A stretch of 64,000 nucleotides of DNA, from assembly GCA_963796365.1 (NCBI GenBank), contig CAWCLJ010000004.1:1721275-1785274 (forward strand), written 5' to 3'. A program made the position numbers and the translations under genes. Source of the stretch: an uncultured Chloroflexia bacterium. Its GTDB lineage: Bacteria; Chloroflexota; Dehalococcoidia; Dehalococcoidales; RBG-16-60-22. The notes beneath the pieces were generated by a model. The model was not told the origin of the DNA. It worked only from the letters and a program-made list of their open reading frames with translations, and did not search any database. This document shows positions 48,187 to 59,333 of this stretch, one piece after another (the stretch's first letter is position 1; each line of letters starts with the position of its first letter).

Positions 48187-49074
48187 TTAAAAAATACTTG
48201 ATGTAATACAAGATTTGGCAGTGTCTTGGATTATTTTTCTATCATGTTGCACTTTTAAACCCAAATCGTATATTGCACTAGCAGAATTGATTATTTCATC
48301 GCTGAGCTCAAGTTTTTTAAGCATTTTTTTAACATCATTGCGACCTATACCACTAGTATCCGCATCAAGTTCATTACAAATATCTTGAACTAATTCTATC
48401 CAAGCATCTCTAATGAGTAATCCTGTACTTTGGAATTCTTCAATCTTGTCACTCTTTAAAATCTTGTTTTTAGCGAGTCGAAGTTTTTGTCCAACAACAG
48501 GATTAAATAGTTCGATATTAGAAATAGATTCAGTTATCCAATCAGTTTTCGGATTTCGCCAATAACATCTTTTCCATAATTGTTCTTTTTGTAGAAGTTC
48601 TTCATCTTTATCTAGAATCCACTCTGGCCAAGGCCACGTAAGAAGTTCTGCTTCTAATTTTATTTTTTTGTAAATCGGATGCTCTATCTCAAGTAATTTA
48701 CCAAGATCAATTAATTTAAATTCTGCTTCTTTTATAGGGTGCCAGTAGATTGGGATATTTTTTTCTCTAAACATACAGAGAGCTAAAGAAAAGCCTTTTG
48801 CCCCTTCACCACTATAACCGTCTTGAAATCCGCTAGGAATAATGGTTAATGGAAAATGCCACCAATTCCATAATAGAAAAAGATGTTCTCGTCCATTTTT
48901 TGAATATTGAGGAGTTGAAACTAAAGTGGCATTTTCTGGCAATCTACCGCTATTTAGGATTGCATCAATTGCGATTAAACAATCAGACGTGTATCCAGAA
49001 TGTCCAATATATAAAGCTTTATACTTCTCTTCCTCTTCAATTTCTTGCCAATTAATATCATTTGAATTGAACAT
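48187..49074 (-). CDS. hypothetical protein, AT-rich ORFan (296 aa from ATG 49074)
   Basis: Long uninterrupted ORF in visibly AT-rich DNA. No motif recognised. The first 43 codons of the track ORF run into a repeat element, so I did not count them as coding. Confidence 0.5.
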   Translation of the reverse strand: MFNSNDINWQEIEEEEKYKALYIGHSGYTSDCLIAIDAILNSGRLPENATLVSTPQYSKNGREHLFLLWNWWHFPLTIIPSGFQDGYSGEGAKGFSLALCMFREKNIPIYWHPIKEAEFKLIDLGKLLEIEHPIYKKIKLEAELLTWPWPEWILDKDEELLQKEQLWKRCYWRNPKTDWITESISNIELFNPVVGQKLRLAKNKILKSDKIEEFQSTGLLIRDAWIELVQDICNELDADTSGIGRNDVKKMLKKLELSDEIINSASAIYDLGLKVQHDRKIIQDTAKSCITSSIF

Positions 49075-49290
49075 GATTATACCTACTGAAGTAGTACCTA
49101 AAGTATATCCCCGCTTTACATATCTCGCAAGCGGGAATCCGACCTTTTCTCCTGACCTCTTCTCCGCTGGCAGAGAAGAGGCAACGGTAAATACATGATT
49201 CAAGAGAATCTTTTGTCTCCCTCTTTGTCAACGGAGAGGGAGAATATGAGGAAAAGGTCGGTCAAAATCCGTCCTTTTTGAAGGAAAGAT

Positions 49291-49375: not shown

Positions 49376-50152
49376 CTACTTCAAAAACTCGTACGCTTTC
49401 TGGTTGAACTCCTTCTTGTTTTCCATGAAGAACATATGCGACCCACCCTCGATTTTTACGAGGGTTGAACCCGGTATTGCTTTTGCTATCACTTCAGATG
49501 AAACCGGGCTGATAATCCTGTCCCCTGTCCCCACGATAACCAGTGTTGGGGAGGTTATAGAGGGCAGCCTGTCCAAAGTGTTGTGGCTGGCGCAGGCGGC
49601 CGCCTGCCCTTCGATGCCTGCATTTGCGGCGCTTCCCATTAAAAAGGACATTATCGCGGCCATATTGCCGAGGATAAACTTATTCATCGGCTTATTACAG
49701 GCCAGTCTTGCCATCGCCGCCTGCATTTTCCGCGGCGGTAAATTAATCAATTCTTTTTGTTCGGGCGCGTCGCCGCTTACACCGTCCTTGCAGCAGTAGG
49801 TACAGGCCAGCACCAGTTTAGTTATTTTTTCCGGGTAGTTGATGGCCAGTTCCTGCGCAATCATTCCCCCCATGGATGCGCCCAGGACGCGGGCCTGCTT
49901 AATGCTAAGATATTCCATCAGTTTAGCCGCGTCATCCGCCATCATCCTTGTTGTATAAGGCCCCGCCGGCTTATCGCTTTTGCCTACCCCGCGGTTATCG
50001 AATGTAATTACCCGGAAGAATTTTTTAAAGAAAGGGACCTGTGACGACCATGCGCTCCGGGGAGACGTGAACCCCATAATCATTACCAGCGGTTCGCCCT
50101 GTCCTTCTACTTTATAATTAATCTTGATTCCGTTAACGGTTGCGATAGGCAT
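49376..50152 (-). CDS. alpha/beta hydrolase
   Basis: Nucleophile elbow GASMGG, FDNRGVGKS, C-terminal H in GGSHMF. Confidence 0.8.
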   Translation of the reverse strand: MPIATVNGIKINYKVEGQGEPLVMIMGFTSPRSAWSSQVPFFKKFFRVITFDNRGVGKSDKPAGPYTTRMMADDAAKLMEYLSIKQARVLGASMGGMIAQELAINYPEKITKLVLACTYCCKDGVSGDAPEQKELINLPPRKMQAAMARLACNKPMNKFILGNMAAIMSFLMGSAANAGIEGQAAACASHNTLDRLPSITSPTLVIVGTGDRIISPVSSEVIAKAIPGSTLVKIEGGSHMFFMENKKEFNQKAYEFLK

Positions 50153-50266
50153 TCGCTTGTCCTCCTCTTACACTGGCGCGTTGCTGCGCTTCAGTTTAGG
50201 TCAGGATGGATGGATTGTCAAGTTAAAATCCTCCCCCTTTAGCTTTCCTCCTTTAACAAAGAGTGA

Positions 50267-50350
50267 CAATTCATCGGGTAATAATTGGAAATTTGAGTAA
50301 AAGAGGCAAACATCGTTCCCCTTGTTAAAGGGGAAGCAGAAGAGGATTTG
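50267..50350 (+). repeat. ~84-nt intergenic element, copy b (5' side of the hydrolase gene)
   Basis: CAATTCATCGGGTAATAATTGGAAAT...ATCGTTCCCCTTGTTAAAGGGGAAGCAGAAGAGGATTTG. Same orientation as copy a. Confidence 0.65.
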
Positions 50351-50474
50351 TAGATCCAAAACAAAAAGGGCGGGTTCTCACCTTTTCTCAACCGCTCACC
50401 CAGAGCTTGTCGAAGGGTCGCCCACCCCTGCTGATAACTGTAAACTGTAAACTGTTAACTGTTAACTAATTACT

Positions 50475-52235
50475 CTATTTATCATACTCCCCCGGCTCAT
50501 CCGGCAGGCCGCATTTGCCGTCTTTACACTCCACCCCGGCTGGTTTCGCCCGCCATTTATCTATCGACTCGCTGCCCTGGTAGCTGTATTCGGAATATTG
50601 CCACAGCGGGTTCGTTTCCCCGCCCACGACGACGAGGCTGATTTTATTCGGGTCGTGATAGGGCGCAATCAGCTCTTCCGGCCTGGCTTTCTTAAAGGTC
50701 GCGAAAGGCTCGATGCCCTGTATCGCCAGCGGGGTTACCATCCAGTCCACATGGTCGAAGCCCCAGTAACGTTCCACCGGCATCTTGATGTTTTCGGAGA
50801 GCCAGCGGCTGTATTCCTGTTTCGTTTTAAAGCCGTCTTTGTTCTTTAACATTTTTGCGATGAGCGGGTCCATGACGATGGTCGCCGCGCCGTTGGTCGG
50901 AGGGATGAAACTCAAGTTGAGGCACATTTCCTCCCCGATTGACCGCCTGGAAGCGGTGCCCGCGCTGTTCACGAAGACCCAGCCGCGGAAAATACTGACC
51001 GTGCTTTCCTCTTTGCGGAACTCGTGCTGCACGTGGAACGGTTCCCAGGGGCTCGCCTCCTCGTTTTCCGCGCAGCAATTATTGTTATAGTTCAGGCTGC
51101 TCCCTTGCGACGACCACATATTCTTTTTGGGCCGGATATCCACCCAGCAGGTGGACATCAGCGACCACGCCCGGCCGATGACCGCGTTAGCCATGTTGAC
51201 CGGCGAAAGCGCGCCGATGCCGGAGTTCATGCCGATTTCATTGCGGATCGGCCCGTTGACCAGCAGCATCGCCGACCAGTTGGATGTTGATGATTGAATG
51301 GCATCCAGTTTGTGCGCGGCGGTTGCCAGAATTACCGGCAAATATTCCGGTTTCGCCCCGGCCATCACCGCGAGCACGGCGACATTTCGCACGGTATACT
51401 TGACCATGCCGCGGATATCGAACCGCATCATCTCCCCGACGATTTCATTCGGGTCGGCGCCGGTGCCGGCGAGCATTTTCTTGACGCGTTCTTCCGTCGG
51501 CAGGATGATGGGGAGTCCGTCCGTCCAGCCTTTATCGTAAAAGAGCTGCTGCAGATTTTCTTCCGTGTCCGGTTTCAGGAAAGACCCGGCGGTTCCTTTG
51601 CTCTCAACTTTGGCGGCTTTGAACTTCAGCTTTTTCGGGTCTACCGGCTTGGTCAGGTTATCGATGATGTCCTGGATGACCGGTTTGCCGCTGTCCGGGT
51701 TCTTGCCGGAGATATAGCCGTCAAGCGTTTCATCGGACATGCCGATAACCGGGTGCGGCGTGAAGAGGAAAGGCACATACCTGGCCTTGCGGTCATTAGC
51801 CACGACTTCGATAAAGGCATCGGTCGTAAAGGGCGCCGTCGGAACACCGTATTTCTGCTCGAGTATTACGCTGGCGCCGGCAACTGCCGACACGCAGCCG
51901 ATTCAGCCCGCCACACCGATGACGGCGGCATCCCCGTTGGCTTTTATTTCGTTCCACAGCGCCGTATCTTTTTCGGTAAGAAAAGTATTCGGGGTGCGCT
52001 TGCGGACGGTCTTGACGGACGGCATGTTTTTTTCAAACCAGCGCTGTACCGCCATCATGAATTTATAGCTGCCGCCATACCCGATATCTATCAGGTAAAC
52101 GGTCTTGCCGTCCAGCATCTGGAGCCGTTTCGCCAGGGATTCTTTGGCTATTTCCGGCCCCGCAAAGACGCCTTGGTTCATCGTTAGGCCGATAGGTTCG
52201 GGGTTTAAAACATTATCCAGTAATTGTATCGTCAA
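50475..52235 (-). CDS. candidate selenoprotein, paralog 1: GrdB-like U-x-x-C domain fused to an uncharacterised ~400-aa domain (586 aa if TGA 51903-51905 = Sec)
   Basis: ORFs 51903..52235 and 50475..51893 share a frame. The joined product reads ...GDAAVIGVAG-U-IGCVSAVAGASVILEQKYGVPTAP.... TTG start 7 nt after AAGGAGG. Homologous along its length to 54392..56077, with the TGA at the same position. Confidence 0.7.
51870..51898 (-). promoter_or_regulatory. putative bacterial SECIS hairpin (paralog 1)
   Basis: GCUG-CGU-GUCGGC-AGUU-GCCGGC-GC-CAGC starts 4 nt after the UGA. The apical loop starts at nt 18 after the UGA (17 nt intervening). Confidence 0.5.
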
Positions 52236-52271
52236 GTCAGGCCTCCTTGTACGATGGGTTATACTTTTATT

Positions 52272-53246
52272 TTACTTCTTTTTCGGCGAAGACGTTTTGA
52301 CCGCGTTTTTGACCCATGTCAGGTCGGCGCGGGCCTTGGAAAAACCGGAATCCGTCTCCGAGAACGGGTCGTGGCGCATGGCCCTTTCTTCTGCCGCCTT
52401 TTTGTCCAGCGCCTCCTGGCGCCTCATGCCTTCCGGGCTGGAATAATTAAGGATACGCTGGAAATTGTCTTTCAGCATCTGTTCGCTGTTGGCATAAGGG
52501 ATGACGTAAAGCTGGTCATTCTCGATGCCTCGCTTCAGCCAGCCGGCCAGTTCCACCGGGTCCATGCCCTGGGCATGGATGGAGCGCAGGAAATCTATTG
52601 TCTTTTCATTAACGTTATAACCGGTATTCGCCAGGCTCTTGGGGCGTGTATAGACCGCTTCCGCAATATTCGACCGGATATTGGCCGGGCACAGGCAGGT
52701 CACGCCGATGCCGTAAGGCTTGAGCGCCATGTAATAGCTTTCCATCAGGTTATTCACCGCGGCTTTGGCGGCGGAGTATGGCGCCGTCCCCGACCCGCCC
52801 ATGAAACCACCCCACGAGGATGTAGTGGCGATGTGTCCGCCCTTACCGGCTTTAATCATGCGTGGCACGAACGTTACCAGGCCGTTAATGACGCCGCCTA
52901 GGCACACCCCGATTACCCAGTCATAATCTTCGTAAGTTGATGCTTCGGCCGGCCCGAAAGTATTTACCCCAGCGGTATTGATTAAAAGTTGCGGCGGACT
53001 GCCGAAAACCTTTTCCGTTTCATCCGCCGCGGCGGCGTAGGCTTTACGGTCGGTCAGGTCGAATTTGATGGCATGTACCGGTGCTTTCTTTTCCTTAAAA
53101 TAGGTCATCGCCTCATCGATATGGTCTTGCCGTATGTCGGCGATAACTACCTTCATGCCGGCCTCGGAAAATACTTTAGCTTGCCCCAGCCCCGCCCCGC
53201 TCGCCCCGCCTGTAATAAAAGCCACTTTCCCGGCAAAATCTTTCAC
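52272..53246 (-). CDS. SDR-family oxidoreductase
   Basis: ITGGASGAGLG, NTAG, YSAAK motifs. Paralog of 53422..54366. Confidence 0.85.
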   Translation of the reverse strand: MKDFAGKVAFITGGASGAGLGQAKVFSEAGMKVVIADIRQDHIDEAMTYFKEKKAPVHAIKFDLTDRKAYAAAADETEKVFGSPPQLLINTAGVNTFGPAEASTYEDYDWVIGVCLGGVINGLVTFVPRMIKAGKGGHIATTSSWGGFMGGSGTAPYSAAKAAVNNLMESYYMALKPYGIGVTCLCPANIRSNIAEAVYTRPKSLANTGYNVNEKTIDFLRSIHAQGMDPVELAGWLKRGIENDQLYVIPYANSEQMLKDNFQRILNYSSPEGMRRQEALDKKAAEERAMRHDPFSETDSGFSKARADLTWVKNAVKTSSPKKK

Positions 53247-53421
53247 AGTTTAGGTTCTCCTTTTCCAATTATGAATGTAAAGTCGTTTTTGCCTAAATTC
53301 CCCTCCCTTGATTGGAGAGGGTAGGGGAGGGTGAAATTCCTTTACACATTTTCCCCTTGTATAAAGGGGGATTCAGGGGTTTTTTTATCCCTGATTACCA
53401 AATACCAATTACTCACCCTAA

Positions 53422-54366
53422 TTATTTCCAGTCCGGCGGGCCTACCTGTTTCTGTTTATCGTAAATAGGGTTATATATGGCCGACCCAAAATCCTTGATG
53501 ACCGACCAGCGTTTTTCATTACGCGGCTCATCCGGGCAGGCGCGTATGATGGCGTCATGGCGGGCTTTGAAACCTGCCTTGAATTCCGGATGGGTGATAA
53601 TAAAAAGGTCGTTGTTCCTGATACCGCGTATTACCCGCTCCCCCATCTCTAACGGGTCCATCGCCACGGAGAAAATATCGATGGGCGGTTTATCACTTTT
53701 CCTGGCGCCGGGCGGCGGTTTCGGCGGCCATGTGTCCCCCGGACTTTTGAACTTCGCGGGCTTATTATCGAAAGAAGTCTGCCCCAGGTTGCTCACCGTT
53801 GGCCCGGGAATGAGCACGGAAGCTCCAATGTTCCGGTTTTGGTAATCTGAAGCGAGGCATTCCATCAGACCGGCCACGGCATACTTGGTCATACAGTAAA
53901 TAATAAAGCCGTCGGAGCCCATCAGCCCGCAGGTCGATGATGTGGAAATGACATGCCCGCCCTCGCCGTGCTTTAACATGCGTGGCAGGATGGTCATCAC
54001 GCCGTTAATCACACCGTTAATATTGACGTCGCTGCTGTAGTCCCAGTCTTTATACGTCAGGTTCTCTATCGTGCCCATCGTGGAACTCACCCCGGCATTA
54101 TTGACCAACAGGTGTATTTTCCCGAAGACTTTTTCCGCCTCATCGGCGGCTTTAGCATAAGCCTCTCTGTCTGTGACATTCAGTTTGATCGTATGGACGG
54201 GCAGTTTTTTCTCTTTGAAGTATTTCGCCGCTTCATCCAGCGCTTCCTGCCGCATATCGGCCAATATCACTTTCATGCCGTATTTAGCGCAAGTCTTGGC
54301 AATTCCCAGCCCGATACCGCTGGCCGCGCCGGTAATAAATGCGACTTTTCCTTTCAGGTCCTTCAT
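53422..54366 (-). CDS. SDR-family oxidoreductase
   Basis: ITGAASGIGLG, NNAG, YCMTK motifs. 314 aa. Confidence 0.85.
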   Translation of the reverse strand: MKDLKGKVAFITGAASGIGLGIAKTCAKYGMKVILADMRQEALDEAAKYFKEKKLPVHTIKLNVTDREAYAKAADEAEKVFGKIHLLVNNAGVSSTMGTIENLTYKDWDYSSDVNINGVINGVMTILPRMLKHGEGGHVISTSSTCGLMGSDGFIIYCMTKYAVAGLMECLASDYQNRNIGASVLIPGPTVSNLGQTSFDNKPAKFKSPGDTWPPKPPPGARKSDKPPIDIFSVAMDPLEMGERVIRGIRNNDLFIITHPEFKAGFKARHDAIIRACPDEPRNEKRWSVIKDFGSAIYNPIYDKQKQVGPPDWK

Positions 54367-54391
54367 GTTATTCTCTCTTTCGCGGTTAAGG

Positions 54392-56077
54392 TTACTCTAT
54401 CCCGCAGGAACCGTCGGCGCAGCTCTTGCCCACCGGCATTCTCAGCGGTTTGGCGTCTTTCTTTATCCCTTTCTTAGGTATCCATTTGTCCACCGGCCAG
54501 GTTTTACTGTAGATAAAGTTGGAGGTGGCATATATGGGGTTAGTCTCTCCGCCAACGACGATGAAATTAATCTTGTCCGGATTCATCGGGAACGGTGAGT
54601 TGGCTTTTTTGATGATCCATTCCTTGAGTTTCTTCAGGTCGGTATATCCCTCGTTATAAACGCTCCTGGCTACCAGCGGGTCGAGAATTACCGCGAAGTT
54701 GCCCATCATCAGGCCCAGGTTTTTCATGGAATTGTAGATATTCTCTGCGCCGCCGATGCCCAGGTTAACGACATCCCAGCCGCGGAACAGGCTGATGGTG
54801 CTTTCTTCCGCCTTAAATCCTTTCTGAACGTGGAAAGGCTGCCAGGGATTTTTCTCTTCATTTTCCGCCACGCACATATTCGTGAAGCTCAAGCCGTTGC
54901 CGAGCGTTGCCATATAGGTATCTCCCAGCCTGGCATCGCCAAAGTTGATACTCATCAATGTCCACGCCCGGCCGATGACTGCGTTGGCGTAATTGAAAGG
55001 ACCGAAGGCGCCGCCGCCGCTGTTCATGCCTATGTCTTTGCGAACCGGCCCGTTGACCACCACCATGCACCCGTAGGAACCGGTGGAACTAGGCAGGGAA
55101 GTCTGGTTCGATGATGCGATCGCCAGGATAACCGGTAAGTGTTCCGGCCTGGCGCCGGCCATGACCGCGTTGGCGGCCACTTTCTCGACTGTATATTCAA
55201 GCCGTTCTTCGACCGGTGTTATGGACATGATACCCACGATTTCATCGGGGGCGTGGTCGGTGCCGGTTAGCATTTCGGCGACGCGTTCCTCCGTGGGGAG
55301 TACTATTGGCAGGCCGTCCGTCCAGCCGTTTTCTAAGAACATACGCTGTAAATTGATCTCTGCATCCGGTTCAAGAAGCCGTTCGTGTTTTGGCTTTTTG
55401 AGCATCTTCATGTTTTTCTCGGCATCGGTTAGCGGCTGCGTCAGGGCGAAGATAATTTCGTCCATCAGGGGCGCTCCGGAAATGGGGTCGTTGCCGTTGA
55501 CGTAGCCGTGCAGTGTCTCGCGGGAGACCCAGCCGACCGGGTAGGGCGGGAAGCTCCAGCGCAGGTTCATGCCGTGGGTACGGCCGTCCCTCTGCATATA
55601 CTCGGCAAAGCGGGATGTAACGACGGGCGCGGTAGGCAGGTTATAAGCATGTTCCAGTGTCCGGGCAAATTCGGCGAGACTCGCCGAACAACCGTCTCAG
55701 CCCCCCACCCCGATGATGACGGCATCGGCGTCTTTTTTAATCACCGGCCAGAATTCCGGCGCATCGGCAAAGGTGTTGCCCGGTTTAACGCGCAATTCCG
55801 TCTTCACTAACGGCCTGTGCTGTTTGAACCATGCCTGTGCTTCTTCCATGAATTCATGGCTGCCGGCAAAGCCGGTGTCAACTAATATCACCCTTTTATT
55901 GTCCAGGCTTTTCAAACGGGGCGCCATGTGCAGGTGTTTCAGTTCATCCCGTGAAATGGTGGGTTGTACCGCCGGGTCGGTAATGGCCATCATATCGTCT
56001 CCGGGGTTTAACCTCCGGCCGAAAATTCCCGATGGCTGCCCTCTGGGGTCGAGAACGGTAATTTTTGTTTCTTTCAT
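54392..56077 (-). CDS. candidate selenoprotein, paralog 2: GrdB-like U-x-x-C domain fused to an uncharacterised ~400-aa domain (561 aa if TGA 55697-55699 = Sec)
   Basis: ORFs 55697..56077 and 54392..55597 share a frame, with 33 stop-free codons between them. The joined product reads ...DADAVIIGVGG-U-DGCSASLAEFARTLEHAYNLPTAPVV... Confidence 0.7.
55670..55688 (-). promoter_or_regulatory. putative bacterial SECIS hairpin (paralog 2)
   Basis: UUCGGCG-AGUCU-CGCCGAA, perfect 7-bp stem. The stem starts at nt 9 after the UGA (8 nt intervening) and the apical loop at nt 16 (15 nt intervening). Confidence 0.5.
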
Positions 56078-56212
56078 GTTGATACTTCCTTATTTTTCCG
56101 CCAAATGCCGGAGCAGAAACGTCATGCGGGGATTTTAGCGCGTCGTCCGGTTGGGGCGGTTTGACGCTCTTCTGACATAAGTGTTGGAAATTGTTATGAA
56201 TAGTTCTTGCGG

Positions 56213-56878
56213 CTATTTTTTGTTAAGCGGCCGTAAAATCGCTCGAGAGGGGCCGGCATCTCCATTGTACATCAATAGCGGCAGGCAGAGAAGTTCGTAT
56301 TCACCGGCCGGCACATGCCCCAGGGCGCAGTTTTCCAGGATATAAACGCCGGCGCCGAGCAATTTCTGGTGCGTCTGGATGATGCTGTCCGGGTCCTGGT
56401 ATTTCCCGATGGTAATGTTGTCCAGCCCGAACATGAGAACGCCTTTTTCCACCAGATAGTCCGCCGCTTTGGTATCCAGGTAGACGTAATTTTCCTGGAA
56501 TTTGGCGCTTTCATACGTTCGCGGGGAGTTGGCGGTCTTGCAGAGCAGCCGGTCGCCTTTTTTTATTTTGTTCTTTTCCAGCTCCGCTACTTTAATGGAC
56601 TCTTTGTCTTTAATCTCGATAACGCGGCACGGGCCGATGGTGGCCTCCACGTCCATATCGGATATCGTCGAGCCGTCCGGTATAAAGTGTAGCGGCGCAT
56701 CGAGGTGTGTACCGGTATGCCCGATAATTTCCAGCATGCATAATGTCGCCATGCTGCCTAATGCCCGGTCGTTGATACGGTAAATCCTTGGCGGTGCCGG
56801 GTCGGTGGGGAAATAGACCATGCCCTGTTTGATAGGCACGGAAATATCGTACCATCCCCTGGGTAATTTGACTGTCAT
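56213..56878 (-). CDS. cyclase-family protein (kynurenine formamidase-like amidohydrolase)
   Basis: IIGHTGTHLDAPLHF (HxGTHxDxPxH) motif. 221 aa. Confidence 0.75.
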   Translation of the reverse strand: MTVKLPRGWYDISVPIKQGMVYFPTDPAPPRIYRINDRALGSMATLCMLEIIGHTGTHLDAPLHFIPDGSTISDMDVEATIGPCRVIEIKDKESIKVAELEKNKIKKGDRLLCKTANSPRTYESAKFQENYVYLDTKAADYLVEKGVLMFGLDNITIGKYQDPDSIIQTHQKLLGAGVYILENCALGHVPAGEYELLCLPLLMYNGDAGPSRAILRPLNKK

Positions 56879-56924
56879 GAAAAACCTCCTTACAATTCCA
56901 TAAGTATCTTGTATTTTACATCAA

Positions 56925-57959
56925 ATGGAAGGGCAGGTAAAAAACATGGGCGATAGTTTAAAAGGTAAAGTTGCCATTGTTACCGGGTCGGGGCAGGGCA
57001 TCGGCCGGGGAATAGCTTTCGGGCTGGCGGCGGAAGGCGCCAAAGTGGTCACCAATAACCGCAAACCGGGCTCCACCGGCTATGCCATCATGAATGAAAA
57101 GCTGGTGAAAGATTTACCGAAAGTTAAGCAGGCCTGGTTTAAGAAACATGTGGCGGAAGATACCGGCGATGCCGAGACTACCGCCGCGAAAATCCGGCAG
57201 TTAGGCGGCGAAGCCCTTGCGTTTTTCGGGGATATGTCCGATTTTGAGATGGCCCGTAAAATCGCTAAAACGACCAAAGAGCATTTCGGGAGAATCGATA
57301 TCCTGGTAAATGTCATCGGGACTTTTGCTTTCAGCCCTATTTGGGAAATGAGCGAAGAGACCTGGGACCATGTCACCCTTGTTAAGCCCAAGTCCCATTT
57401 CAATACTATCCGGCACGTCCTGCCTTATATGATGGAGCAAAAATCGGGGCGCATTCTTAATTGCACTTCCGGCGCGGCCACCGGCAGCCCCAATCAGACG
57501 AATTACGCCGCCGCCAATGCTGGCGTGCTCGGCCTTACGTGGAGCACGGCGATGGAGGTGTATCCTTACGGCATTACCTGTAACGCTTTTGCACCCGGCG
57601 CTTATACCCGTGCCACCTTCGAGCTGGAAGCGATGGTCATGGCGCTGCCGAAGGAAAAACGCCCGTTCCCTGACTCCGAGTTTTTCATGAATATGATGGA
57701 GAACACGCCCGGTCCTGAAGAGCTGGCGCCTTTTATCGCCTATCTTTGCTCCGATGAAGCCGCCAACGTCAGCGGTTCGCTTTTCTTTGTCATGGGAAAC
57801 ACGATTTCACTGTATAATGAGCTGAAATTCGAACGGACGCTGACCCGGCAGGGCGGGAGGTGGACTTTCGACGAGTTGAAAGCGCAAGCCCCCCACTCAT
57901 TATTTATGGGATACCACAGCCCCGCCGCCCCCAATGAAAACCGGTGGGGCGGGAAATAA
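56925..57959 (+). CDS. SDR-family oxidoreductase (long form, 344 aa)
   Basis: VTGSGQGIGRG, YAAANAG motifs. Alternative ATG at 56946. Confidence 0.8.
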   Translation: MEGQVKNMGDSLKGKVAIVTGSGQGIGRGIAFGLAAEGAKVVTNNRKPGSTGYAIMNEKLVKDLPKVKQAWFKKHVAEDTGDAETTAAKIRQLGGEALAFFGDMSDFEMARKIAKTTKEHFGRIDILVNVIGTFAFSPIWEMSEETWDHVTLVKPKSHFNTIRHVLPYMMEQKSGRILNCTSGAATGSPNQTNYAAANAGVLGLTWSTAMEVYPYGITCNAFAPGAYTRATFELEAMVMALPKEKRPFPDSEFFMNMMENTPGPEELAPFIAYLCSDEAANVSGSLFFVMGNTISLYNELKFERTLTRQGGRWTFDELKAQAPHSLFMGYHSPAAPNENRWGGK

Positions 57960-58141
57960 GTTGTCATGCTGGAGTTCGCAAAGGGCGAACGAAGCATCTG
58001 GTAGGGAGGTAAATCTTCCCTTCCAAATGTTTGGGATTTGTATCTTGGTTATTGATTATTCATTATCGGCGTGGCAATCTCACTCTACCGCATGGTAAAG
58101 TGTCATGTATTATGTGTGCAACTAACCTTGAATCGTAAACC

Positions 58142-59333
58142 TTGCCTCGGGAGGTAATTTCCATGACCATGAAAATTGATATGGAAAACCAGGTCTACCG
58201 TGATTTGCAAAAACATCTGGATAAAGGGCCGGTCGGGTTTCCCGCCACCAAATCCGGGGTTGAAATCCGCATGCTTAAGTTTTTCTATTCCCCGGAAGAA
58301 GCCGGGATTGCCGCGATGCTTTCCCCGCATAAACTGGAACCGGTCGGCCGTATATTGAAACGCGCGCGCAGGCATGGCCTTAATCTTACCCGGGAGGAAC
58401 TGCAAAAGAAACTGGACACGATGTTCCAGAAAGGCACGCTGCTCGTCTATACGGACGGCTTTAAAGAGAAGCATTATAAGAACGCCGGTTTTACCGCCGG
58501 CGGCACGCTGGACTTTGCGGTAGGGCGGATTACCCCGGAAATCGAGGAAGTGCATGAGCAATATGTTAAAGAAGCCTTTGCCAGGGTAGAAGTAGGCGCA
58601 AAAAACATCCCGCAGCTCCGCACGGTTCCGGTGGCAAAAAGTATCCCCACCGCCGGAAAAATCCGCCTCGGCAGCTATGATGACGTCCGTCACCTTGTCG
58701 AGCAGGCGCCCGGCCCAATGGCGGTCGCTAAATGTGTTTGCCGCCTGGGCGCGGAAAAGCGCGGCAATCCGTGCTCGAAGAGCCCCATCCGTGAGACCTG
58801 TTTGCAAATCGGCGCCGACCACGCCCGCCAATACGTGGAGATGGGCATCGGGCGCTATGTGACGAAAGAGGAGGTCTTTAAGATGCTGGATGCTGCCCGG
58901 GGGCCGGGTTTATCCTTCAGCCGGAGAATTCGAAGCACCCGGAGGCCATTTGCTGCTGTTGCGGCGATTGCTGCGCCATTTTGAAATCAGTGAAGATGAC
59001 GCCTAAATGGTCGGACCATTTTGCCACTAATTATTATGCAATTGTCGATACGGGCGTCTGTACCGGCTGCGGGACCTGCGTGAAACGCTGCCAGATGGAT
59101 GCCAGGGTCATTGTAAACGGAAAAGCCGTCATCACAACCTGGACCACTGCATCGGCTGCGGCAATTGCGTGACAACCTGTCCTTCTCATGCCAGCAGCAT
59201 GCGGCTTAAAGAGAAGCAATTGGTGCCGCCGGAGACCAAGGACGATACATTCATGAAGATTTATACCCGGCGGGTAGGCTTCCGGAAAGCTTTTACCGCC
59301 AGAATCAAGATGATGCTGGGGATGGATTTATAA
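58142..59333 (+). pseudogene. 4Fe-4S cluster protein, two frameshifts
   Basis: Three frames join to ...KEEVFKMLDAAR / AGFILQPENSKHPEAICCCCGDCCAILKS...VCTGCGTCVKRCQMDARVIVNGKAVI / NLDHCIGCGNCVTTCPSHA...MMLGMDL*. Shifts are near 58897-58907 (CCCGGGGGCCGGG) and about 59135. Confidence 0.65.

Follow-up and report, generated by a model that had tools for sequence, protein, structure and literature searches.

UGSC-containing selenoproteins have been published as an abundant family of unknown function (PMC2398784, PMC9312934, PMC13188914), in which forms with selenocysteine (Sec) far outnumber forms with cysteine (Zhang & Gladyshev 2008, PMC2398784). They are among the most abundant predicted selenoproteins of aquatic metagenomes, and no member has a known function. 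A fusion between UGSC and a domain called Unknown_1 was reported in 2008 (PMC2398784), and Dehalococcoidia with 46 to 49 selenoproteins have been recorded (PMC13326102). Here we describe two members of this family, SelP1 and SelP2, each encoded next to a short-chain dehydrogenase (SDR) gene, in a stretch of 64,000 nucleotides (the window) from an uncultured Chloroflexia bacterium assigned to the Dehalococcoidales (GenBank assembly GCA_963796365.1, contig CAWCLJ010000004.1, positions 1,721,275 to 1,785,274).

The interval analyzed runs from position 49376 to position 59333 of the window. From the sequence alone, an earlier reading (the original prediction) had seen in it a duplicated selenoprotein and SDR module within a redox and hydrolase cluster of unknown pathway. 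Our open reading frame (ORF) map located all genes at the same positions and in the same order, and the identity of the cyclase gene (PF04199), the alpha/beta hydrolase gene (PF00561), and a third SDR gene was confirmed. Transcription on the minus strand follows the order cyclase, SelP2, SDR_B, SDR_A, SelP1, and, after a gap of 322 bp, alpha/beta hydrolase (Table 1).

Selenocysteine in SelP1 and SelP2

Each selenoprotein gene could be read as a pair of separate ORFs or as a pseudogene, its TGA being a true stop or a mutation. Gene callers do split these genes, the database entries being N-terminal fragments of 110 to 178 residues and C-terminal fragments of 400 to 476 residues, and a frame-shifted iron-sulfur (Fe-S) gene is present in the same window. 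Against this reading, the codon at the Sec position was TGA in all 136 family copies from the 80 loci, in five phyla, that we obtained by scanning with one genome per species; TAA, TAG, or a sense codon never occurred there. Protein homology runs uninterrupted across the TGA in the alignments of SelP1, SelP2, and P0122, a Cys form of 599 residues from a Desulfobacteraceae metagenome-assembled genome (MAG), which carries a TGC codon at this position and is 65% identical to SelP2 over 99% of the latter. The 30-plus codons from the TGA to the next possible start are conserved at the protein level, and the Cys-form orthologs are single ORFs.

The RNA downstream of the codon points the same way. 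In both window genes, a hairpin begins 7 to 11 nucleotides past the UGA. Among 75 SelP1-type sequences, with positions numbered from the U of UGA, the stem that spans pairs 15-30 to 20-25 is 71 to 100% paired and shows compensatory two-sided changes: one pair is A-T in 38 sequences and G-C in 29, and a second occurs as T-A (23 sequences), G-C (16), A-T (7), or C-G (3). The loop in this set is GGUC or AGUU, and shifted-register controls pair less. RNAalifold gave no single consensus for all 130 post-UGA segments because the register of the hairpin varies among subfamilies; covariation was scored instead by these explicit pair counts on the SelP1-type subset. A scan of the whole window at the Rfam gathering thresholds returned no match, and a tRNA scan of the window found none.

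A conserved UGA, a downstream stem-loop of the selenocysteine insertion sequence (SECIS) type, and Cys homologs, by which bacterial selenoproteins are recognized, are all present. Judged by these features, SelP1 and SelP2 are genuine selenoproteins, and the reading of the TGAs as stops or mutations, already contradicted by the covariation 3' of the TGA and by the conservation across it, has essentially no probability left. As had been predicted, the two are also paralogs, with 40% identity over their full length (E = 7e-135). The start of SelP1 is ambiguous (TTG at 52235 or ATG at 52181); homologs with 82 to 86% identity span residues 1 to 586.

Two conserved SDR and selenoprotein modules

The two SDRs are paralogs as well, and within the window neither has a closer relative than the other (43% identity, E = 4e-70, 208 bits). 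Both are classical SDRs (PF00106, with 134 bits for SDR_A and 167 bits for SDR_B) and carry the motifs TGGASGAG and YSAAK in SDR_A and TGAASGIG and YCMTK in SDR_B. Neither reaches an NCBIfam equivalog cut-off, the best match being PRK06194 with 184 and 202 bits versus a required 308. An aspartate at the end of strand beta-2 of SDR_A suggests that its cofactor is nicotinamide adenine dinucleotide (NAD).

We counted neighborhoods only for genes with enough flanking sequence. Of the 45 SelP1-type genes (UPGC or UIGC) of the Chloroflexota, 36 are immediately preceded on the same strand by an SDR_A-type gene, and 10 of the 11 SelP2-type genes (UDGC) are immediately followed by an SDR_B-type gene. 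The reciprocal test, starting from SDR_A homologs with 62 to 82% identity on metagenome contigs, gave a selenoprotein gene directly downstream in 38 of 53 loci and, in a further 3, a tandem SDR gene between the two (41 of 53 in total). The linkage persists down to 52% identity. The predicted pairing is thus borne out in both directions by these counts. The exact order of the window, SelP2-SDR_B-SDR_A-SelP1, recurs in six loci (L005, L006, L008, L014, L023, and L034 of our survey), and the SelP2-SDR_B pair is inverted in L022, L028, L030, L035, and L036.

The original prediction of a duplicated module therefore holds in part. There are two real paired modules, but at 40 to 43% identity they are neither local nor recent copies; the gene order is opposite within the two pairs, and in other genomes the modules are separate or inverted. 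Taken together, the comparisons indicate that the two modules are real, ancient, and lineage specific. The similar divergence of the SDRs (43% identity) and of the selenoproteins (40%) is compatible with duplication of a two-gene unit followed by rearrangement, and stays only compatible with it because the order within the pairs is opposite. The view of the cluster as serving an unassigned route stands, because the SDR linkage is conserved and no pathway has been assigned to the UGSC family (PMC13188914).

A large and nearly Sec-exclusive fusion family

The selenoproteins do not belong to an unknown family: their N-terminal domain is that of the published UGSC family (PF24696, NF041046). The N-terminal ca. 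150 residues match Pfam PF24696 with 60.6 bits in SelP1 and 61.7 bits in SelP2 (gathering cut-off, 25). The NCBIfam equivalog NF041046, which describes a stand-alone protein of ca. 150 residues with a U-G-S-C motif, is not reached (50.4 bits for SelP1 and 40.2 bits for SelP2, versus a cut-off of 125; 35 to 54 bits for Cys-form fusions). Indeed, SelP1 and SelP2 have 586 and 561 residues and the motifs UIGC and UDGC, and U-G-S-C itself occurs in just 5 of the 136 relatives. Some homologs have already been named "UGSC family (seleno)protein" by NCBI. The Unknown_1 of the fusion reported in 2008 (PMC2398784) might correspond to the C-terminal domain (C-domain) of SelP1 and SelP2.

An exhaustive HMMER search recovered 5,411 clusters (at 50% identity) at E ≤ 1e-3 and 988 at E ≤ 1e-30, and word-seeded searches gave more than 5,600 and more than 6,100 matches, nearly all of them gene-caller fragments of the sizes given above. 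Over 192 full-length sequences, the Sec column holds U in 163, S in 9, C in 8, and M in 5. Full-length Cys forms are rare and retain C-x-x-C; the UGSC domain is found in six full-length representatives. By their U-x-x-C motif, the 136 copies include UPGC (69), UDGC (18), UHGC (14), UIGC (10), UEAC (8), USYC (6), UGSC (5), and UNAC (4), to which a USTC subfamily is added. The latter (L110, L111, L113, and L140) is 32 to 34% identical to SelP1 and SelP2 and lies directly downstream of an SDR_A-type gene.

Many members end in a flexible C-x4-C tail (predicted local distance difference test score [pLDDT] below 50), which we found in 48 of 74 UPGC, 10 of 12 UIGC, 14 of 17 UDGC, and 7 of 7 UEAC sequences. 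In four UPGC-type loci (L014, L016, L042, and L052), a TAA or TAG just before the first tail Cys removes the motif, and in L014 and L016 the tail motif CEDGTCGLPD is still legible past the stop. L022 has a TGA in place of the first tail Cys. This TGA may encode a second Sec; truncation is equally possible, because TAA or TAG stands one codon earlier in the other four loci. The tail stops of these five loci may represent repeated loss of the tail.

Twelve Acidobacteriota loci (L055, L057, L060 to L063, L065, L066, L069 to L071, and L075) hold 3 to 6 tandem paralogs each, with the motifs UPGC, UHGC, UEAC, USYC, UNAC, and UGSC. Their neighbors include genes for a MarR regulator, a split phosphoenolpyruvate-utilizing enzyme (PPDK_N plus mobile domain), and a HAD hydrolase, as well as OadA-like, biotin-carrier, and biotin-carboxylase-type genes.

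The C-domain and its structural models

The C-domain of ca. 400 residues has no relative by sequence in Pfam, NCBIfam, or the PDB. Single-sequence phmmer searches of the PDB gave insignificant N-terminal matches only (best E = 0.047), and a C-domain profile gave no PDB match at E ≤ 10. The AlphaFold model of the Cys form P0122 is compact and of high confidence (pLDDT, 83.9; predicted template modeling score, 0.84), and that of P0001, a post-UGA fragment from the window itself, has a pLDDT of 78.7. In the P0122 model, the N-domain is a parallel beta/alpha domain that resembles Rossmann and flavodoxin folds, and helix 162-178, which follows the third strand (153-157), begins with the Sec/Cys site. 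Foldseek searches of the PDB returned only generic alpha/beta matches to the N-domain for whole P0122 (best E = 0.0039; template modeling [TM] score, 0.13) and nothing better than E = 0.097 for the C-part.

Two structural kinships were considered and dropped. The likeness of the C-domain to class I fumarate hydratase, CyuA, and Toblerone-fold amidohydrolases is confined to weak Foldseek matches at noise level. The thioredoxin fold guessed in 2008 (PMC2398784) does not agree with the Rossmann/flavodoxin-like model, and none was present among the top 50 Foldseek matches.

About 60 positions of the C-domain are at least 93% conserved over the 192 full-length sequences. The domain has an invariant polar core (TDGxP..PT, MAG..P..PVxLA, NGP, N..IGR, C.xENEE..W.PFH, and FRGW) and a conserved Cys, which is C387 in SelP1. 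By pairwise alignment, P0424 (717 residues) consists of two tandem C-domains with no UGSC domain, and both copies keep TDGxP..PT, MAGC.P, NGP, N..IGR, and TC...E.EE..PW. P0413, P0439, and P0443 (ca. 710 to 740 residues) likewise contain two stretches that match the C-domain profile, and P0413, P0424, and P0439 have no Pfam match and so no UGSC domain. Since the C-domain occurs without UGSC and keeps its Cys/acidic motif there, it has an active site of its own. The domain is thus autonomous, and its fold is uncharacterized and possibly new.

Other genes of the cluster and electron carriers in related loci

The features of the locus are collected in Table 1.

Table 1. Genes and sequence elements of the SelP1/SelP2 locus (positions in the window)
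Feature	Position	Strand	Remarks
SDR_D, fourth SDR, 285 residues	44685..45542	-	Start MKDFKGKVAVITGGASGIG; ca. 4 kb beyond the interval
Alpha/beta-fold hydrolase	49376..50152	-	PF00561; PcaD-like, below cut-off
SelP1, selenoprotein of 586 residues	50475..52235	-	UGSC-family N-domain, C-domain of ca. 400 residues, tail C-KDGK-C
SelP1 SECIS-like hairpin	51870..51898	-	8 to 36 nucleotides past the U of UGA; loop AGUU; centroid structure
SelP1 Sec codon TGA	51903..51905	-	Only in-frame TGA; context AVIGVAG-U-IGC
SDR_A, classical short-chain dehydrogenase	52272..53246	-	36 bp upstream of SelP1
SDR_B, SDR_A paralog	53422..54366	-	25 bp downstream of SelP2
SelP2, selenoprotein of 561 residues	54392..56077	-	SelP1 paralog; tail C-ADGS-C
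SelP2 SECIS-like hairpin	55669..55689	-	9-bp stem, 3-nucleotide loop; same hairpin in UDGC-type homologs
SelP2 Sec codon TGA	55697..55699	-	Context VIIGVGG-U-DGC
Cyclase-family (kynurenine-formamidase-like) metal hydrolase	56213..56878	-	Opens the minus-strand run, 135 bp ahead of SelP2
SDR_C, divergent distant SDR	56925..57959	+	YAAAN at active site
4Fe-4S dicluster protein gene	58142..59333	+	CCCCGDCC motif; spread over three frames

The remaining SDRs differ in their relation to the paired ones. SDR_D is 34 to 35% identical to SDR_A and SDR_B and belongs to the same subfamily. SDR_C is 26% identical to them, and its catalytic YxxxK is replaced by YAAAN (Lys to Asn), so that it may be inactive or work by a different mechanism.

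The cyclase scores 89 bits against PF04199 and 140.5 bits against the arylformamidase model TIGR03035, below the cut-off of 223. Co-occurrence with the selenoproteins, which the original prediction proposed to check for the SDR and cyclase genes, was found for the SDRs in the Chloroflexota, but a cyclase homolog (65 to 76% identity) accompanies just ca. 10 of the 52 loci from this phylum. With 128.5 bits against PcaD (TIGR02427; cut-off, 255.85), the alpha/beta hydrolase is a generic member of its fold, and hydrolases at the equivalent position in related loci are only 24 to 26% identical to it. Lying beyond the 322-bp gap past SelP1, it probably forms a transcription unit of its own. A promoter and terminator scan of the cluster, including the promoter-like site of the alpha/beta hydrolase, gave nothing above shuffled expectation.

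A divergent Fe-S protein had also been predicted. The conceptually joined protein indeed matches Fer4 families and carries two CxxCxxCxxxCP motifs in addition to CCCCGDCC, in agreement with a dicluster 4Fe-4S protein, but its reading frame is broken: the frames run 2, 1, 0, with two apparent 1-bp losses near 58890 and 59135. The gene is either a pseudogene or affected by long-read homopolymer errors. Intact homologs (53% identity) are found near SelP1-type genes in L046 and L112.

In related loci, genes for electron carriers recur next to the selenoprotein gene. FMN_red and flavodoxin genes adjoin it in L009, L017, L019, L024, and L047, and a recurrent order in the Dehalococcoidales is MutS / SDR_A - SelP(UPGC) - flavin mononucleotide (FMN) reductase - flavodoxin - cyclase - alpha/beta hydrolase. 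In L078, nitroreductase and FMN_red genes lie beside the selenoprotein gene. The gene for P0122 (L082, 10001..11800) stands amid HdrA-like, HdrD-like (CCG domain), and FlpD genes and a molybdopterin oxidoreductase gene, whose product appears formate-dehydrogenase-like by its domains. Two side observations concern P0122. Its gene is followed by a DUF1573 gene, DUF1573 being itself a known selenoprotein family, and its hydrophobic N-terminal segment may be a signal or lipoprotein-like sequence or reflect a miscalled start.

A census of neighbors in Bacillota, Actinomycetota, and Desulfobacterota revealed mixed contexts and no universal partner; neighbors outside the Chloroflexota include SnoaL, MoaF, Fe-ADH, thiolase/HADH, nitroreductase, and DUF169 genes. 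The commonest apparent neighbor (ORF cluster 3) was discarded, as it consists of antisense shadow ORFs within the selenoprotein gene. In one Bacillota MAG and one Gaiellales MAG, a protein of ca. 305 residues is encoded upstream of the selenoprotein (L072, 5847..6764; L079, 6001..6930). It has no Pfam match and, by eye, two repeated cupin-like halves, and it could be a partner outside the Chloroflexota.

Beside the cluster of the window, an ORF of 338 residues (48187..49203, minus strand) has no Pfam or NCBIfam match and a G+C content of 41%, versus ca. 52% in its flanks; it is possibly a foreign insertion.

A possible function and its alternatives

The reading that we favor, and to which we give about even credence, is that SelP1 and SelP2 are Sec-dependent reductases acting on a small molecule that they share with the SDR and recharged by electron carriers encoded nearby. 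We base it on the finding that Sec is strictly used, on the position of UxxC at the N terminus of a helix, and on the large invariant polar core of the C-domain, together with the frequent mobile Cys pair and the repeated adjacency of low-potential carriers; the chemistry itself is modeled on UxxC and CxxU selenoenzymes and on C-terminal redox tails. SelP1 and SelP2 would be specialized paralogs, each cotranscribed with its own NAD-type SDR. The C-domain would bind the substrate, which the selenolate would attack as nucleophile or reductant, and the neighboring Cys would resolve the adduct to give a selenenylsulfide. Re-reduction would proceed via the C-terminal Cys pair, from FMN reductase and flavodoxin in many Dehalococcoidales, from an Hdr/Flp-type complex for one Cys form from a Desulfobacteraceae MAG, and possibly from the 4Fe-4S protein in the window. 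The same substrate would undergo an adjacent alcohol/ketone conversion by the paired SDR. Two related substrates or stereoisomers would be handled by the two modules, and the cyclase-type and alpha/beta hydrolases would be looser accessory members.

Several observations weigh against this proposal. The family has no member with a known substrate, cofactor, or activity (PMC13188914), and since the C-domain has no detectable relative, the proposed chemistry has no anchor. None of the 23 SelP1-type genes outside the Chloroflexota has an SDR gene beside it; a different paralog is paired in Acidobacteriota, where an SDR_B-like gene (44% identity) lies next to 3 of 7 UEAC paralogs. Apart from these, the link is restricted to the Chloroflexota, so that the family does not require the SDR as a partner. 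The electron-carrier neighbors vary by lineage, each being found in a minority of loci. Finally, the C-x4-C tail is absent from four subfamilies (UHGC, USYC, UNAC, and UGSC) and is removed by stop codons in several UPGC members, so that the C-terminal Cys tail cannot be essential.

Some of these points would suit a general thiol/selenol-disulfide oxidoreductase, with UGSC as a thioredoxin-like carrier, the C-domain in a docking or regulatory role, and the SDR as incidental synteny within one order. UxxC is typical of such proteins, the Global Ocean Sampling study of 2008 guessed a thioredoxin-like fold and a redox role for UGSC (PMC2398784), and the SDR link is confined to one lineage. We nevertheless find this rather unlikely, since the model is Rossmann/flavodoxin-like, with no thioredoxin fold in the top 50 Foldseek matches, and a domain of 400 residues with ca. 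60 near-invariant polar or small residues looks like an enzyme. The 3 to 6 paralogs per locus with distinct U-x-x-C dipeptides point to substrate specialization, and the SDR linkage is seen in both directions and down to 52% identity. Another possibility is that the C-domain is the enzyme, of the dehydratase or desulfidase type, holding a [4Fe-4S] cluster on three ligands, the conserved central Cys and the two C-terminal Cys residues, while UGSC protects or reduces the cluster. Three conserved Cys residues do lie outside the UxxC motif, and the model shows a disordered C-terminal tail, which would be expected of a metal-requiring site. The best, nonsignificant C-domain Foldseek matches, class I fumarate hydratase and the [4Fe-4S] cysteine desulfidase CyuA, would also fit; their values (E ≥ 0.097, probability ≤ 0.13, TM score ca. 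0.17) are at noise level, however. The central Cys is conserved in only 86% of the sequences, and the C-terminal pair is missing from the same four subfamilies and from 24 of 74 UPGC members, which makes such an enzyme decidedly unlikely.

A divergent system of the glycine or proline reductase type, with the selenoprotein in the role of GrdB or PrdB and a pyruvoyl group made in the C-domain at Asn-x-Cys, is scarcely probable. GrdB and PrdB are UxxC selenoproteins too (PMC2398784, Table 2), and the conserved N-x-C-x-x-E-N-E-E might in principle be a self-cleavage site. Yet there is no PF07355 (GRDB) or Gly_reductase match at E ≤ 0.01, the cluster ORFs include no GrdA, GrdE/PrdA, thioredoxin, or thioredoxin reductase, and the models show one continuous compact chain. 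Our searches agree with the original statement that the locus does not encode a glycine or proline reductase of the canonical kind.

The Sec-dependent reductase reading can be given a more specific, and highly improbable, form, namely, a selenium-based, glutathione-independent counterpart of the logic of aerobic beta-etherases. By this analogy, the SDR would turn a secondary alcohol into a ketone, and the selenolate would displace the alpha-substituent (aryl-ether, amine, thioether, or halide) to form a selenoether, from which the Cys of UxxC would free the ketone. The resulting selenenylsulfide would be re-reduced by flavodoxin- or Hdr-type donors, and the two modules (elsewhere up to six) would be stereo- or substrate-complementary routes. 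If this were true, a new cleavage of lignin- or humic-derived bonds would be open to Dehalococcoidales and Acidobacteriota that live anaerobically in peat and sediment, and the C-domain would be a new enzyme fold.

Earlier work had already described the N-domain family and its use of Sec and had shown that a fusion exists. Within the literature searched, the scale of the fusion family, its near-obligate Sec, and its subfamily structure appear to be new, as do a C-domain without structural relative and an SDR operon conserved in both directions in the Dehalococcoidales. The SDR pairing offers an experimental handle on an uncharacterized family of selenium enzymes and could lead to a new reaction that depends on selenium in the uncultured anaerobes that abound in peat, sediment, and aquifers. 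For genome annotation, too, the family is of importance: gene callers regularly break its genes into pairs of "hypothetical proteins."

Comparison with known systems

In GrdB and PrdB, a selenolate and a resolving Cys bring about reductive C-X cleavage, followed by re-reduction by a dithiol. SelP1 and SelP2 are likewise UxxC selenoenzymes, a likeness that we take as a functional analogy only. No sequence relationship to GrdB or PrdB was detected, and the selenoproteins have an SDR partner in place of a nearby pyruvoyl subunit, GrdA, and thioredoxin/thioredoxin reductase.

The Lig pathway of Sphingobium combines the SDRs LigD, LigL, and LigN with the glutathione-dependent etherases LigE, LigF, and LigP and with LigG, several stereospecific pairs working in parallel. 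An NAD-dependent SDR produces a ketone, a thiolate displaces the alpha substituent, and a second thiol frees the product. The proposed logic of SDR and selenolate would run parallel to this by analogy, not by homology: the Lig etherases are glutathione S-transferases, whereas no glutathione is involved here and the hosts are strict anaerobes.

High-Mr (high-molecular-mass) thioredoxin reductase, MerA, and some Msr enzymes have a mobile C-terminal pair of Cys or Sec. The flexible, low-confidence tail of the fusion proteins, with its conserved Cys pair, could shuttle electrons in a similar way, although these proteins have an unrelated fold and lack a flavin domain, and several subfamilies do without the tail.

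The closest likeness remains that to the UGSC family itself, with which SelP1 and SelP2 share the PF24696 match, a Sec at the same place in U-x-x-C, and the strong predominance of Sec over Cys. Compared with the family as described, they are longer, with an unassigned domain of ca. 400 residues and often a C-x4-C tail in the fusion, and their motifs are UIGC and UDGC, those of their relatives being UPGC, UHGC, UEAC, USYC, UNAC, USTC, and, rarely, UGSC.

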